DNA of 34,556 nt from positions 1 to 34,556 of the forward strand of contig MQRL01642759.1 in NCBI GenBank assembly GCA_001938525.1, read 5' to 3'. Under the pieces are notes generated by a model, which saw only the letters and a program-made list of their open reading frames with translations, was not told where the DNA came from and did not search any database. Positions within the stretch are counted from its first letter, which is position 1. Each line of letters starts with the position of its first letter. The position numbers were made by a program, and so were the translations under genes. Below, piece by piece: positions 20,694 to 27,226 of the stretch. Origin of the DNA: Dugesia japonica. Lineage: Eukaryota.

Positions 20694-22749
20694 AGATTAT
20701 TACTGAATGATATTGAATTATAGCAATAAAGTTAATTTATATTTATTATTTGTTAGATTACATTTATAATATTACAAGTTAGAATTATAAAATTCTGATG
20801 TGTGATTAAAAGATAATAAAATTAGTAATTAAATATTTACAAATTTTAAATATTAAAATGAATATTTAAACACTAAAATAGACTATTTTATCAATTATTC
20901 AAAAATTCAAGTAGTTTTCAAATTTCTCTAATTATTTACAATTTGCGAAAAAAAGACAGTTTTCAATAAAATAAAAAATTAATCAAATTTGTTGTTTAAC
21001 ATTTTTTTATTTATTAATGAAATTTTGAAAAATGAATAAAATTTCAAAAATCTCGATTTCCAATAATAATTGCTAAGTTGGTTTGGCACAGACTGAGCAG
21101 ATTTTACTAGTTTTTGAATATTCAGTGCTGTTTTCAATAAAATTTTCTATTGCAATTGATACCATTATTTTCAAATATAGAAACTTGAAACTCTGTTTTT
21201 ACTCAGGAATAGTTTTCACCAAAAATATCTGTTGCTTTTATTGTAAAAATATACTTGAGCAATTAAATCTGCTGTAAGATATAGTTTTGGAAATTAATTA
21301 AATGAATTAACTTTATAATCAAACAAATAATCAGAGTAGATTTGATTTTAATATTTGTTATTTAGTTCGTTTTTCTAACTAAAGTCTTTTTTCTCTCTAT
21401 TTTAATTTACAGAATTTAGCATCTTATCTATGAACATTTGCTTTACAATTACTTCTGTTTCATAGAAAACACAATTATATCTAACTCGATACACTACAAT
21501 ACAAGAAAGTTTTATATTATAACTTTAATTCTTAATTTTTTAAAAATTTACATGGGTTGACAATTTGTTTGGTTCTATAGATCTTAGATTTTTTGGGTAT
21601 ATTTTGCAGACTTTCTCGTTTCGTTGATTCGTTGACGTATGGAAATCCATAAGAATTGCAAACATTTAGCGGTTGTCCTACCTTCATACTCTAAATAACT
21701 TTGGTAAATCTGATCACTTCAGACGGTAAAAAATTTGTATTTATTAGGTTAAGTTATCCGATTTTATGGAAAAATTTCGTTTTCCGTTTATATTGTACTG
21801 TTAAGGTTATTAATTAGAGCTTTTTGAGTTCTAGTTCAACAAAAATATTTTTTTATTAAAACTTTTTTTTGTAAAACCGCTATTAAATAAAAGCGATTTA
21901 TTAATCAAGAAAAGTTTGTTTTTCTTACATTATTTCTGGAGAAGCTTGATGATTTGAAACATTTAGTAATTTTAAACTGCAGGTGTTTTTATGGTGCCGA
22001 TCAATAAATAGTTATTACGTTGCAGAATTTTCTTGCTTTTCCTATAAAATGCATGAAAAACATAACCATAAAGATATTTCAAAGAAACAACCCTCATACC
22101 ATTTAAATAATTAATATACTTTTAAAAATTACTTGAAATAAATATAACAGAACACTTAATGTAAACAGTAGTTTGCTCCTATGAAATAAAGCTATTTATC
22201 ATTACTCCTTGCAAATCATGCTTCTTCCGTTCATTTTGTAATTACAAGTAATACAAAGAAGCCACAAACATTCAATGGTTGTCATAATTTGTCGTAACTG
22301 TATTATATTCTCGAGTCTTTGAAAATTTCCTTTCAATTTTGGATCATTTTATTAGAATATAAGCTTATCTTGAATTTCTGATAATGTTTGGATGAAACAT
22401 CCAGTTGAGGTGAAGCAAGACCAAGGCTGTCACTAACTATAAGGAATTGGAAGGAAATATAGAATCAAAAATGCATCGAAGACGATTAAAATGTTAATTA
22501 GTCCACCAGAAAGGTCGAATAACGTTGTCAACGACCCTATGTTTTGATTAACATTATCCACATTATTATTCCAGGATCACATGCTCATGATTCCGATGAC
22601 ATGATGAATAAAATTACATAATCCTGTTTGCTACTCATCCGTATTTACTAGCAAGGAGTGTCGTCGCGGATAATTATTCCTTTTTAGACGGGTCCGGAGA
22701 ACTGAACCCTGAATTTAGTAATTATCCATAATTGTTTATCCTTTAGTTA

Positions 22750-22932
22750 ATGCCGGCAGTATTGCAAAAAACTCTTCGCTTAATAAAGAGGCAACGTCAG
22801 ACCACTTGCCTGAAGCAGTTAATAGCCCACCGTTTAACAAATGGTAAAATTGAGCACCCTGAAGAAACCGATCTCCAGTGTTTCGCCGAAATGTTCCCAC
22901 TAGAGCATAAAATGGACTTAGATGAGGAATAA
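22750..22932 (+). CDS. Hypothetical 60 aa protein (basic N-terminus, acidic C-terminus), island ORF1
   Basis: ATG directly after the acceptor-like TTTATCCTTTAG; GC-elevated; no recognisable domain. Confidence 0.35.
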   Translation: MPAVLQKTLRLIKRQRQTTCLKQLIAHRLTNGKIEHPEETDLQCFAEMFPLEHKMDLDEE

Positions 22933-23079
22933 TGGCAGGTTTGAACTCGTGTCATTTTGTTGTGACTACCTTAATATTAATTTTTTCGTTTGTTTGTTTA
23001 ATGAGCTGTAGTTTTATTTTTTTTATTAATCCATGTTAATTAAAGTATCTAGTTTATTGAATTATTAAAATAACTAGGA

Positions 23080-23432
23080 ATGGAATCCATATGGGAACGG
23101 ATAGTAGATCGGAGAACTCGCTGGATCATTTTTAGGCGACATCATAACCCGCATAACCGGGATGCCAGAATATTAGTCGATAACTCAAATTTACCACCAG
23201 TGGAAGCCGCCGTAACTCGCATTCAGAATTTTGGCAAGAGGCCAATGGAATGGGCCAGTACGCAATCACACAACTGCGTTCCAGTATCAACCTCCGGCTC
23301 CACCCCCAGTCGCGCAGGCCTTCATTAATAATTTACTCTGGGGCGTTAGGAAACCATCTGGGGTGGATGATGCCGAGAATACCGCTCTGGCCACGGACCC
23401 TGCGATTAGTCCGCAGTGACTCTTTTGTTTGA
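23080..23432 (+). pseudogene. Island ORF2, probably frameshifted hypothetical protein
   Basis: MESIWERIVDRR...AAVTRIQNF. Adding one T to the T-run at 23229-23232 continues as WQEANGMGQYAITQL...LVRSDSFV* (23432), followed by AATAAA at 23439-23444. Confidence 0.35.
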
Positions 23433-23980: not shown

Positions 23981-24164
23981 ACTTTTTCTTTATCTGTAAA
24001 TGCATGATTAGTTAGTAAATCTTTACCTTTGTGTGTCTTATTTTGATTTAGTTAGGGGAGTTTCGTCCTATATAAAATAAAGTAATTATTTCTTTTCATT
24101 AATACTTCCTTATCTAGTGCCACATCTCACATTTCCGAACAGCTTACGACGGTGTCAATAGATA

Positions 24165-24500
24165 ATGCGTCGCCTATTCATTGAAAGACAGTTAAAGCGT
24201 AAAACCGACCGAGCGTTATTAAAACACCTGGCCCAAAGGGACCAGATGATAAATAAACTAGATTTGATCGTAAAAAAGCAAAACGATCTAGCCACGCAAA
24301 CTAAGGCCCTAGAGAATCAAACCAATTTGTTATTGCAAAGGAAAATCGACTTCCTCAAACAATATATCGGGAATCTTTCCAGCCAGATTGGTAATTTCTC
24401 TTGATTGCAGTGGGACGATGATGATGATGTAGCCGCCTTTAACTTTTTAACGACGGATCCAGGCCAGTGGCTAGACCCTGGTGCATTGGATCTCCTATAG
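24165..24500 (+). pseudogene. Island ORF4, coiled-coil protein with an acidic tail and one in-frame stop
   Basis: 79 aa ORF with heptad-like Leu spacing. Beyond the TGA at 24402-24404 the frame continues LQWDDDDDVAAFNFLTTDPGQWLDPGALDLL*. AATAAA at 24548-24553. Confidence 0.4.
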
Positions 24501-27226
24501 TTTTCATATGAAATAATGTTTTTCGTTTTTAAATTATTATAGTATCTAATAAAGTAATGACGATAGGGAAAATAGTGAACCCAAATTTAAAAGTATACGG
24601 GCGCGTACCTTCCATTAAGCGAGAGGTCAACCACCACATACTGAATGCCTAACTTAGGGGCGTTAGGTTAAATTCTTGAAGGGGCCTCCTTAGGGCAGTT
24701 TTTTCCCCAGCCACGTTTTCATAGACCGAACTCAGGTAAAACCCCAACAATAATATTAATTTTTGCTTAATAACAATCAGTAAAATTTTATAAAAACAGT
24801 TTATTTATAAAATGAATGTTAAACACAATTCCAAAACAATTATATTGGTTTTCCGATCATTTTCTATTTTTATTCTTTCCATTGGTTTTGGCTTAAATCA
24901 CTTAGAGAAAGCTTCGTGTACTCTCATAATTAAAATACCTTTCAATTATGTCTATAAGAGTTTAGTTATTTTATTGAAAAGTAGGTACTAGTGAGTTTTC
25001 TGATTTCAACTTGAATTTACTTCTGAATAGGCTTGTATTCTTATAAATATTTCATTTGTATGAATGTGAATATGAGTATCAGCTCACCTATAGTGCCATT
25101 CTTTACATTAGAATTATTTGATTACAAAATTTACTAAATAAAACTATGCTGATGATAAAATTCTAAGTGAAATATGCAAAAAATATTTTTTTTAAAAATA
25201 TAAACCATTGATCTGTAAAAATAACTGAATAAACAATTTTATATAAAATAAAATTTTATAAAAGCTATATATCAAAATTGTTGTTCTTCTATTTTTTCTG
25301 ATATGTTGACTATACCTTCTTCAGGACCAATAGAAAACATCGACGAAATATGGAAAAAATGAAAAAGAGAAGAACAAAAATTTAGATCTTTGGCTTTCTA
25401 AACAATTTATTTTAAATAAAATTGTTCATTCAATAAAAATATGTAATTATTGTGTTAATTTTTAGTTTTAAGATTTAAGCATGATTTTTACATTTTCAGA
25501 GATTCTGGCTATGTTTTTTTTATACTAGAAAAAAAGCTTCATTTCCTGGATAATCATTCTTTCCTTTCCGTATATTTCCGAGAAATTTTGTATGTACTCA
25601 ATCACATTTTCAATCTTTCAGTTAGCAACACATTCAATTCACCTTGCTCTTTTGAATTAATTAATATTGATTTTTCTTGTCCTTGGTATTTTTACATTGT
25701 TTCATTTCCTGATAAACATATTTCTGGTTCTTAGACAAACCAAGGTTCAGATGGCTATATTATATCGCATACTCATTTTTTGATTTTGAGCTTCTTGTAA
25801 TTCATGATCACATTTGAATGATTTCTTCTCGATTCTGCACAAGAATAAATTTCAGAGCTTAGTTTTACCACAGTTATCATCTCAGTTTTCAATTTCTTTA
25901 TTTTTGAATAGACTATTATACCTTTGCCTTGAGCGTATTTATAAATTATTAAGTGAGACCAATGGTTCATCTTTTAATTAATAAAATAAATTCGGTTAAC
26001 GAACTTCAGCAAAATTTCAAGTTAAAACACAGTTTGTTAATTATGAATAAAAATTAAAATCAATGATATCCTATTCCGTGTATTTAATTGAATTATTTCC
26101 AAATCGCATAAAAATTTATTACTGAATCAAAATATACATAAATTTGTCACAAGTATTATTATAACTAGTTGGTCGATTTAGCGATACAAGTCTAAAAACT
26201 TCTAAATCGGCAGTGACAAGATCTTAATTCAAAATGGATTCTAGAGAATCAGGCAAAATTATTTCGATTGAGGAATTACTTTAATTTTCGCCATGTTTTT
26301 CAATCTGTATCTTCACGATTTATTTTTACTTTTGTTTTTATTAATCACATAATATAATTAGTTTTATTTAATAGCTTATAAAATTATTTATTAACTATAT
26401 TTATTTAGATTGATTCGTGTAAAATGGCGAAACATCAACGACGATGAAAACAAATTGAATTTTATTTGTAAAATTATTGAACATGAGACATAGATAAAAG
26501 ATTTAACTAACAAGTATGAAGACTAAATAAAGATGAAACAAAAATACTCACTATAAACATATCCTGAAAAGTAATTAAAAGTTTTGTAGAGTTAAAACTC
26601 AAGATTTGTTATTGTCAATGTGAAGAACAAGAAGAAATGACCTAAATTAAACGACAGTTAGGAGAGGTAACAAAGACCCTCAATAACGATATGGAACAAA
26701 TGTTAGTTTCCAGGACAAAGGAGAACACACACTGAACTGAATGTATACACTTGTAAACAATCCCGAAAAAGTAAAAACGTAACATGATGGAGAGAAATAA
26801 CATTGTATAGTAAGACTTAGTTACGTATAGATATTAGGAGGAATATAATAAAATGTATTGGTGCTCTAGAAGAAACGTTACTGTTATTGTGGACTATTAC
26901 AATTATTAGGGTGATGTATTTCCCAGATAATTACGGTAACTAAGGTAACGTGGTTGAGTAAATATCAATTAACACCCAAATTCTCATTCTATATAAACAC
27001 ATACACACACATTCCGTCGCAACTCCTCTCCCCTCCATACGTAAAATCTCCTATATCCAACTACCCCTCACCCCTTAGGAAGTATATAAAACATGAATAT
27101 CCCCTTAAAAACATGGTTAACAACAGATATGACAGTTATCATGAAACAGCAATATGATTGGTTAATAATAATAAAGAACAAAATATATTGATTGATAAAT
27201 GAACAAATTGAAAATAAATGATATCT

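Follow-up and report, generated by a model that had tools for sequence, protein, structure and literature searches.

The window is a 34,556-nucleotide stretch of Dugesia japonica DNA (assembly GCA_001938525.1, contig MQRL01642759.1) in which four co-oriented open reading frames, ORF1 to ORF4, lie close together (Table 1). They measure 60, ~115, ~122 and ~127 codons and are not paralogous to one another. Their composition sets them apart: GC content is 43–51% in the ORFs, against 24–27% in the spacers and 27% in the window as a whole. A first-pass annotation, made from the sequence alone, had described a GC-rich island at 22400–24750; the island is real, and the bounds of the unit are corrected here to 22385–24749. 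Its frame lengths (~60–115 aa) hold at the lower end and are too short for ORF3 and ORF4, and the spacers, put at ~150–220 nt, span 137–193 nt. Each ORF is preceded by an AG acceptor-like site (22746, 23077, 23612 and 24117), and AATAAA or ATTAAA motifs are found at 23039, 23439, 24076 and 24548, all as annotated. Two of these motifs, at 24076 and 24548, are secondary: the poly(A) signals typical of the family, 10–20 nt past the stops of ORF3 and ORF4, have decayed in this copy.

Table 1. Features of the four-ORF locus (positions are those of the window)
Feature	Position	Strand	Remarks
4-bp target-site duplication, left copy	22381..22384	.	Identical four bases flank both sides of the LTR
Solo LTR, Burro-type Gypsy	22385..24749	+	Left end aligns to L057/L086 LTR starts; right end common to the family
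First ~109 nt of LTR	22385..22493	+	89% identical to L057 LTR start; ends at ~2.1 kb deletion junction
3′ part of putative leader intron	22494..22746	+	Ends in acceptor 1 (AG 22745-22746); common to copies
ORF1, 60 aa	22750..22932	+	Own ATG; open in window copy; dN/dS 0.14
ORF2, ~115 aa	23080..23419	+	Own ATG after acceptor 2 (23076-23077); AATAAA at 23439; dN/dS 0.13
ORF3, ~122 codons	23613..23980	+	Starts AG|TG at acceptor 3 (23611-23612), no ATG at start; dN/dS 0.15
DKSTQT motif codons, near ORF3 C-terminus	23942..23959	+	LC8/dynein light chain-type; binding predicted from motif
ORF4, ~127 codons	24118..24500	+	Starts AG|TG at acceptor 4 (24116-24117); dN/dS 0.16
Last AATAAA and conserved terminal ~190 nt	24548..24749	+	Ends in CCCCAACA; primer-binding site next in full elements
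4-bp target-site duplication, right copy	24750..24753	.	Identical to left copy

The unit is a damaged, internally deleted solo LTR of a Burro-type giant Gypsy retrotransposon, and the four genes sit inside the LTR, outside the internal region. The LTR begins with TG and ends with CA, its tips are inverted over 8–9 bp, and a 4-bp target-site duplication also marks a second locus (L045); comparison with L057 puts the whole LTR at ~4.5 kb. A copy count, suggested in the first-pass annotation, shows the sequence to be far from single-copy: the termini TGTTGGGG and CCCCAACA have 6756 and 2650 exact matches in the genome, against none for reversed controls. Most of these LTRs appear to be solo: of 30 right and 30 left ends, 3 and 1, respectively, adjoin internal sequence. 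The three right ends that continue inward have one primer site in common (18 primer-site junctions in total), which starts 7 nt beyond the LTR and whose sequence complements the 3′ terminus of a tRNA-Pro(TGG) piece from the same genome (L258); ARAGORN reported no whole tRNA at three primer-like loci, and relaxed settings gave noise. A polypurine tract lies directly before 15 left LTR ends. A Penelope-like or non-LTR origin was dropped after the fixed left end was found.

The window copy itself is a dead relic. A deletion of ~2.1 kb took the CCAAT/TATA promoter, the putative leader exon, the donor and an (ATT)n run, and three ORFs are broken: ORF2 by a frame change near 23231–23241, ORF3 by an in-frame stop at 23687, and ORF4 by in-frame stops at 24159 and 24402. 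Three ORFs with a single lesion each had been annotated, which is right for ORF2 and ORF3 and one lesion short for ORF4. "Recently decaying", as the sequence had been called, is an overstatement: the nearest copy differs by 6.5–9% per ORF.

Comparison among copies, another of the suggested checks, demonstrates that the four ORFs are real genes under purifying selection. Values of dN/dS are 0.13–0.16 (31–39 copies; Table 1) and drop to 0.06–0.10 between the most distant subfamilies, tree-based omega is 0.25, 0.22, 0.24 and 0.16 for ORF1 to ORF4, and third codon positions vary on average 2–3 times more than first and second positions. Shifted sense frames of the same copies give 0.73–2.25. It is true that the majority of copies are broken (free of stops and frameshifts are 19/34, 7/31, 7/35 and 9/39 copies of ORF1 to ORF4), as would be expected if the ORFs were chance frames in non-coding LTR sequence; that reading is nonetheless barely credible, because the constraint is frame-specific and strongest between the most distant subfamilies, and the breaks fit decay after insertion, as indicated by an intercept dN of 0.06–0.085.

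The encoded proteins have few recognizable relatives. Profile searches with ORF1, ORF3 and ORF4 found no homologue at near lengths, and the sole relative of ORF2 among 1.84 billion representatives is P0001, a 94-aa protein from a 512-nt contig. Pfam gave nothing significant for the ORFs, sequences in the PDB gave no match, the Atlas was blank for ORF2 and ORF4, and Foldseek against the PDB returned no match for the ORF2 model, a low-confidence arrangement (pLDDT 55) of three strands and a helix. Protein functions are predicted from motifs. Alignment and charge reveal in ORF1 a basic N-terminal part, a conserved HPDETDL core and an acidic end. ORF4 has a basic start, a long helix (9–91; mean pLDDT 79) and an acidic-aromatic tail. 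In the tail of ORF3, [DE]Kx[TS]QT is whole in 26 of 29 copies: LC8 is bound through a KXTQTX motif with a TQT anchor, and the same source describes rabies P and Ebola VP35 as carrying a KXTQT-type motif next to an oligomer-forming helical region (PMC8615749), an arrangement that ORF3 resembles, its own binding being a prediction.

Walking outward from sister LTRs, as had also been suggested, uncovered gag-env-pol genes together with the LTR termini. The joined order is tRNA-Pro primer site, Gag, Bcl-2-like, Env, protease, dUTPase, RT, RNase H and integrase. A single contig (L169) carries ORF4, the LTR end, the primer site, Gag, the Bcl-2-like motif and the start of Env; another (L247) contains Env, protease, RT, RNase H and integrase, and it and L232 have protease, RT, RNase H and integrase in the order known from Ty3/Gypsy. 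Gag, with which the giant ORF1 of Burro / GYPSM1 begins along with 2–3 CCHC knuckles, is identified here by zf-CCHC (E 3e-8) and Retrotrans_gag (E 0.0085) and is followed by several kb more of coding frames. Env, related to mononegavirus fusion proteins (PF24664, E 2.7e-28), is placed between the Bcl-2-like motif and the protease in L232 and L247; the Bcl-2 Pfam match is weak (E 0.12) and falls at the expected position before Env. The dUTPase match between protease and RT (PF00692, E 1.3e-4) is barely past the cut-off. There are two protease domains in tandem, and a frame with multiple knuckles sits before the polypurine tract. Of the MATH, BIR, ankyrin, SUMO-like and AIR1 motifs known from Burro / GYPSM1, a Pfam scan of part of the internal frames gave no match. 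Gypsy pol sequence adjoining the array in L043, L049 and L058 was considered as the parent and set aside: it has short LTRs of its own and is a mere neighbour.

This gene set is of the kind known from the Burro / GYPSM1 elements of dugesiid planarians, which are Gypsy-like LTR retrotransposons of giant size (PMC6431247) and abundant, PIWI-controlled repeats (PMC8532177; PMC6431247). Common to both are a Gag with CCHC knuckles, long LTRs, thousands of copies, a mononegavirus-type Env in a polyprotein ahead of the protease, and a dUTPase between protease and RT; the Bcl-2-like motif of Burro / GYPSM1 has its weak counterpart here, and the tandem protease pair is a difference. The assignment was made by domain content and gene order against the published description rather than against the S. 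mediterranea Burro1–4 sequences, and in this fragmented assembly no examined contig spans a whole element (the Burro / GYPSM1 criterion being >30 kb). The element itself is already known, whereas none of the papers searched contained this array of LTR genes: in PMC6431247 accessory ORFs are internal only and LTR genes go unmentioned, and ORFs in Burro LTRs are not described in the literature searched, which excluded the original Burro paper, extended data and Repbase entries. Of the origins that the first-pass annotation had proposed, accessory cargo of a giant retroelement is borne out, with the cargo in the LTR instead of the internal region. An endogenous DNA virus or Maverick/Polinton fragment, or decayed host exons, would account for orphan genes of a composition unlike that of the host; such an origin has become extremely improbable given LTR termini, a 4-bp duplication, a primer site, a polypurine tract and gag-env-pol linkage (L169, L247), and the linked loci inspected have no polB, capsid or Rep frames; the ends, inverted at their tips over 8–9 bp, are not the long terminal inverted repeats of a Maverick/Polinton.

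The layout around the ORFs is conserved beyond chance. The acceptor AG occupies the same position in 24/26, 30/32, 31/33 and 34/35 copies of ORF1 to ORF4, and AATAAA follows within 80 nt of the stop in 10/28, 21/22, 23/25 and 35/39 copies, against shuffle expectations of 1.5, 1.3, 1.4 and 7.5 (the copies are related and the trials not independent). In ORF3 and ORF4 constraint starts at the acceptor, ahead of any in-frame ATG: pN/pS is 0.25 for codons 2–14 of ORF3 and 0.14 for codons 2–17 of ORF4. In 32 of 33 copies TG follows the ORF3 acceptor, and only 21 of 35 rows contain the first in-frame ATG of this ORF.

In intact LTRs, CCAAT/TATA boxes are accompanied by a donor, A|GTAAGT. In L057 the TATA box lies at +730, the donor at +1003, the ATT run at +1962 and the ORF1 acceptor at +2451; the CCAAT/TATA cluster is on the left in every copy that retains this part. 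Of 333 matches to the donor motif, 326 have A at position −1, versus 56 of 169 other GTAAGT sites, although the sequence ahead of the donor is variable in both length and content. BLAST matches to the left part of the LTR were obtained for only 20 of 30 donor-motif loci, some over the motif alone. The donor is present in 7 of the 12 cassette-linked copies examined, one of them with T at −1. The first exon differs in 3′ LTRs of the L178/L179 type, where the donor is preceded by G or C, and the array could not be traced to these LTRs.

Taken together, these features make it likely that the Burro-type LTR expresses its four selected small proteins by cis-splicing one leader to four alternative last exons, with the start codons of ORF3 and ORF4 built by the splice. 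Transcription would start ~30 nt past the TATA box near +730, placing the array in R/U5, and would yield a leader of ~250 nt whose last base, at the donor, is A. Since ORF3 and ORF4 begin AG|TG, joining this A to TG would build their ATG; ORF1 and ORF2 would use their own. A start codon formed at a splice would be shared with gypsy env. Each mRNA would end at the poly(A) signal behind its ORF, and the internal genes would be served by a fifth acceptor, ~300 nt past the primer site.

The first-pass annotation had offered alternative or spliced-leader trans-splicing; the former fits, the latter poorly. Planarian trans-splicing has been described (PMC12582326), and the repetition of acceptor, ORF and poly(A) signal is operon-like, as a polycistronic RNA resolved by a spliced leader would be. 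Flatworm spliced leaders end in AUG (PMC12582326), however, and this AUG would not be in frame with ORF2, ORF3 or ORF4: in 27 of 28 copies of ORF3 the frame it opens is only 4 codons long, and in 28 of 30 copies of ORF4 it meets a stop within 25 codons. Alternatively, ORF3 and ORF4 may start at the GTG that overlaps the AG, which is kept wherever AG|TG is kept. Both proposals are improbable, neither explaining a conserved donor with A at −1. Cis-splicing from the donor is argued from sequence conservation, neither spliced reads nor start or poly(A) sites having been seen. Among RNA reads from four runs (6–26% of each), 28–71 per run fitted L060 in part, mostly at less than 90% likeness and with no joints, and reads placed on L043 were dominated by (ATT)n and an unrelated repeat, none showing a donor–acceptor joint; the reads are too few or uninformative to test splicing. 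The junctions that the cis-splicing model predicts are exact.

One consequence counts against this model: with a start near +760, minus-strand strong-stop DNA would be ~3.7 kb. The usual length is far below this. Such a product is avoided if the array lies in U3. Genomic RNA would then come from a second promoter close to the right end, with the left one driving the small-gene mRNAs only, in the manner of the U3-overlapping accessory genes of some retroviruses. The ~190 nt past the last AATAAA do resemble an ordinary short U5, and a CAG|GT near the LTR end could feed the fifth acceptor. We regard this arrangement as rather unlikely: no second promoter has yet been identified, the CCAAT/TATA cluster is always on the left in copies holding that part, and the terminal CAG|GT falls in the integration end, which accounts for its conservation.

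If the leader is spliced as proposed, genomic RNA must remain unspliced and read through four poly(A) signals, and it is for this reason that the small proteins most likely regulate the output and traffic of the element's RNA in a Rev-like or accessory-like way. ORF3 would be an LC8-bound helical adaptor, while ORF4 would be basic and helical, its acidic tail resembling that of an activator. It is an even question whether the Burro LTR goes further and forms a self-contained four-gene unit, in which a single promoter and leader exon serve four alternative last exons, each with its own poly(A) signal, and the starts of ORF3 and ORF4 are split by an intron and readable from spliced RNA only. Solo LTRs with promoter and donor would then make regulators without internal genes; an adaptor that binds LC8 and a Rev- or activator-like protein would be among them and would balance short mRNAs against genomic RNA.

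The same problem is met by Cer1 of C. elegans, in which export of the unspliced genomic RNA depends on CERV, a small protein that is itself translated from a spliced mRNA; CERV is a single protein and not an LTR-borne array, and the likeness would be one of role (PMC10309623). Elements of the Drosophila MDG1 group, such as 412, have short accessory ORFs, sORF1 and sORF2, upstream of gag with low dN/dS, and a short mRNA arises by premature polyadenylation behind sORF1 (bioRxiv 10.1101/2025.03.14.642691); those two ORFs are described as unspliced, whereas here four lie in the LTR, each with an acceptor and a poly(A) signal, and their alignments contain no obvious hydrophobic stretch.

Burro LTRs are treated as non-coding ends in the literature examined, a view that four selected genes alter. 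Should the cis-splicing model be true, solo LTRs could be protein-coding units, or small gene cassettes, and the question posed is how a genomic RNA that contains a strong donor, as well as four acceptors and as many poly(A) signals, escapes processing. Retroviral accessory genes that overlap the LTR, such as MMTV sag, HIV nef and foamy bel/bet, are expressed from subgenomic spliced mRNAs. These are single genes in, or reaching into, U3; the Burro LTR has its own promoter and donor, and the genes that lie downstream of these are complete and number four.

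The four same-strand frames that the first-pass annotation had picked out as a GC-rich island, ORF1–ORF4, have a GC content of 43–51%, against 24–27% in the spacers and 27% in the window overall; that annotation also gave the right positions for the AG sites and the A(A/T)TAAA sites, four of each. Three of the frames are indeed broken, but not by one lesion each, ORF4 having two stops. The observation is confirmed with small corrections.

Features of the window (state of ORF1–ORF4 judged against natural open copies)
Feature	Position	Strand	Remarks
Cathepsin L-like exon	3944–4534
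Fragment of a different Gypsy pol	8263–9243		downstream of cathepsin L-like exon; 77–81% to L058 protease–RT region
tRNA intron endonuclease match, weak	12557–12955	-	host gene
C2H2-like exon	20181–20696	-	host gene
ORF1	22750–22932	+	open
ORF2	23080–23419	+	frame change near 23231–23241
ORF3	23613–23980	+	stop at 23687
ORF4	24118–24500	+	stops at 24159 and 24402
Inverted repeat	25226–25432		71-nt arms, 82% complementary, 65 nt between; possibly a small MITE-like element
zf-UBP protein with helical tail	27306–28097	-	host gene; presumably BRAP2-like
Burro polyprotein piece, decayed	29544–30027	-	67–74% to L168, L169, L173; insertion separate from the LTR

The proposed same-genome DNA search revealed a multi-copy sequence: from 8699 first-look candidates, 40 of the 40 scored matched, with long matches at 76–90%. 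The copies share a sharp right end, beyond which they diverge, and tracing them leftwards across an (ATT)n-rich tract located a fixed left end. These LTR ends read TGTTGGGG (left) and CCCCAACA (right). Exact genome counts are 6756 for the left 16-nt pattern, which is common to more than one LTR type, and 2650 for the right 19-nt pattern (reversed controls, 0). The window copy runs from a decayed left end at 22385 to the right end at 24749; since both ends are present, with the identical four bases on either side, it is a solo LTR. Locus L045 likewise has both ends plus a 4-bp duplication. Relative to the copy at L057, the window copy lacks ~2.1 kb after base ~109 of an LTR that is ~4.5 kb when whole; in L057 that segment has a TATA box (+730) and a donor (+1003) along with CCAAT boxes and an (ATT)n run. 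At the target sites the two central positions are A or T in almost every flank (33 on the left, 41 on the right; loci L061–L119), and several of these insertions lie inside (ATT)n runs.

Comparison among copies, another suggested check, indicates that ORF1–ORF4 are genes under selection. Constraint was found in all four: pairwise dN/dS is 0.14, 0.13, 0.15 and 0.16 for ORF1–ORF4 (34, 31, 35 and 39 distinct copies), using 498/561, 333/465, 492/595 and 303/741 pairs, the remainder being excluded for synonymous saturation or insufficient length. On trees, omega comes to 0.25, 0.22, 0.24 and 0.16. Shifted sense frames gave 0.73–2.25, and antisense values are low (0.20–0.28) only in the frame sharing third positions. 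From ~0.5 in close pairs, dN/dS declines to 0.06–0.10 in the most distant, a trend expected if lineages are under selection while active and copies decay neutrally once inserted. Over the four frames the majority of copies are broken (open: ORF1 19/34, ORF2 7/31, ORF3 7/35, ORF4 9/39).

When LTR ends were taken by pattern, three of 30 right ends continued into one common sequence, with a primer-binding site starting 7 nt past the terminal CA, and one of 30 left ends was preceded by a polypurine tract. Both internal flanks are multi-copy (40/40 scored match). The loci collected include 18 primer-site and 15 polypurine junctions, which puts ORF1–ORF4 in the sense orientation relative to gag-pol. 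The genome contains a truncated tRNA-Pro(TGG) (L258) whose 3′ end complements the primer site. At L259:130–220 a tRNA-like sequence (Rfam tRNA, E 2e-8), its 5′ part unlike the L258 piece, is joined in register to primer site and LTR end, the arrangement that copying of the primer tRNA into DNA would leave.

Walking outward, as had been advised, reached RT and integrase genes. In locus L169, ORF4, the LTR end and the primer site are followed by a CCHC-knuckle Gag, more frames spanning several kb, a Bcl-2 match that is weak (E 0.12) and, last, the beginning of Env, which in L168 matches PF24664 (E 2.7e-28); L232 and L247 carry on with Env, two proteases, dUTPase, RT, RNase H and integrase. The tandem aspartic protease domains precede a dUTPase-like domain (L232:3866–5686; L238:2085–4219). 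The same gene order is described for Burro/GYPSM1 of dugesiid planarians in the available portion of PMC6431247, which, in contrast to the two found here, mentions one protease. This gene order, together with the base composition, points to a planarian host. Judged by the sequence features tested, the parent is a Burro-type Gypsy element, and it is almost certain that the window unit is an LTR of this type whose four ORFs are under selection.

An acceptor AG survives in 24/26, 30/32, 31/33 and 34/35 copies of ORF1–ORF4. AATAAA lies within 80 nt past the stop in 10/28, 21/22, 23/25 and 35/39 (shuffle expectation 1.5, 1.3, 1.4 and 7.5), and is present also where subfamily spacers differ; the copies, being related, do not make independent trials. 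ORF1 and ORF2 have their own ATG, 3 and 2 nt past the acceptor. ORF3 and ORF4 start AG/TG in 32/33 and 33/35 copies, and constraint starts at the acceptor (pN/pS 0.25 for ORF3 codons 2–14, 0.14 for ORF4 codons 2–17). Both would need one upstream base to complete an ATG, and a leader ending in A, spliced onto the TG, would provide it. The left part of intact LTRs contains the motif CCGTTGCAG and, 12–24 nt on, GTAAGT. The base before the donor GT is other than A in only 7 of 333 CCGTTGCAG–GTAAGT matches; at other GTAAGT sites it is A in 56 of 169. LTR left parts are matched by 20 of 30 donor loci, and a donor is present in 7 of 12 cassette-linked copies (A before GT in six of the seven). These signals make shared-leader, split-ATG expression likely. 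The RNA runs yielded few, divergent, partial reads fitting LTR copies, with no joints among them.

Alternatively, an AUG-ending spliced leader, such as that described for flatworms (PMC12582326, in part), could serve ORF3 and ORF4. However, the resulting frame closes after four codons in 27/28 copies of ORF3 and by codon 25 in 28/30 copies of ORF4, and shows no constraint (these copies were gathered with a codon-like anchor; the pN/pS values quoted are unanchored). The first-pass interpretation is supported in part: giant-retroelement cargo is upheld by the gag-env-pol linkage, and the spliced leader fits poorly. The shared LTR donor may also serve internal genes, through a fifth acceptor, TTTTCAG followed by ATG, 265–316 nt past the primer site (26 of 26 rows listed, some from the same contig; e.g. 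L186:3550–3600).

As the first-pass annotation had reported no recognised domain, so we found no family, homologue or fold match for ORF1–ORF4, save one unnamed ORF2 relative. Since genomic RNA has to retain the intron and read through four poly(A) signals, their most likely job would be regulation of the element's own RNA, for which CERV offers a point of comparison (PMC10309623, in part). ORF4 is modelled as a single long helix (residues 9–91, mean pLDDT 79), which together with its basic first third and acidic, aromatic tail suggests a nucleic-acid-binding, activator-like protein. Of 29 ORF3 tails, 26 end in [DE]Kx[TS]QT (TQT fell outside the search pattern; 13 unrelated rows were set aside), a motif that anchors LC8 in rabies P and Ebola VP35 (PMC8615749, in part). 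The genome encodes LC8 (PF01221: 56 matches among 80 candidates scored, some being exons or duplicate contigs), and ORF3 is predicted to bind it. The LC8/dynein light chain family is large in this genome.

Retroviral genes overlapping the LTR are known, as are splice-made start codons. Among described accessory layouts the closest is that of sORF1/sORF2 in MDG1-group elements, which as far as the portion available describes are two unspliced ORFs upstream of gag and have a single premature poly(A) site (bioRxiv 10.1101/2025.03.14.642691). In the literature searched, including the available parts of PMC8532177, PMC11410931 and PMC13238120, Burro LTRs are nowhere described as carrying genes; the original Burro paper with its extended data, and Repbase, lie outside that literature and could already show them.

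Array composition differs among subfamilies. ORF1–ORF2 is duplicated at L051:1–2066, an additional ORF1-like frame precedes ORF1 at L006:1040–1370, and ORF2 is longer, with only ~35% identity, in L030 (1011–1440), L027, L056 and L057. Locus L058 (2700–4050) holds two back-to-back LTRs, the second of which is interrupted by an unrelated Gypsy pol and has diverged in both ORF1 (46% identity) and ORF2. Distinct from these subfamilies is a second LTR type with the same 16-nt left end, seen in the 3′ LTRs of L178 and L179 (bases ~780–1030), where the first exon is a different one that includes a short ATG frame, and the donor lies in another context.
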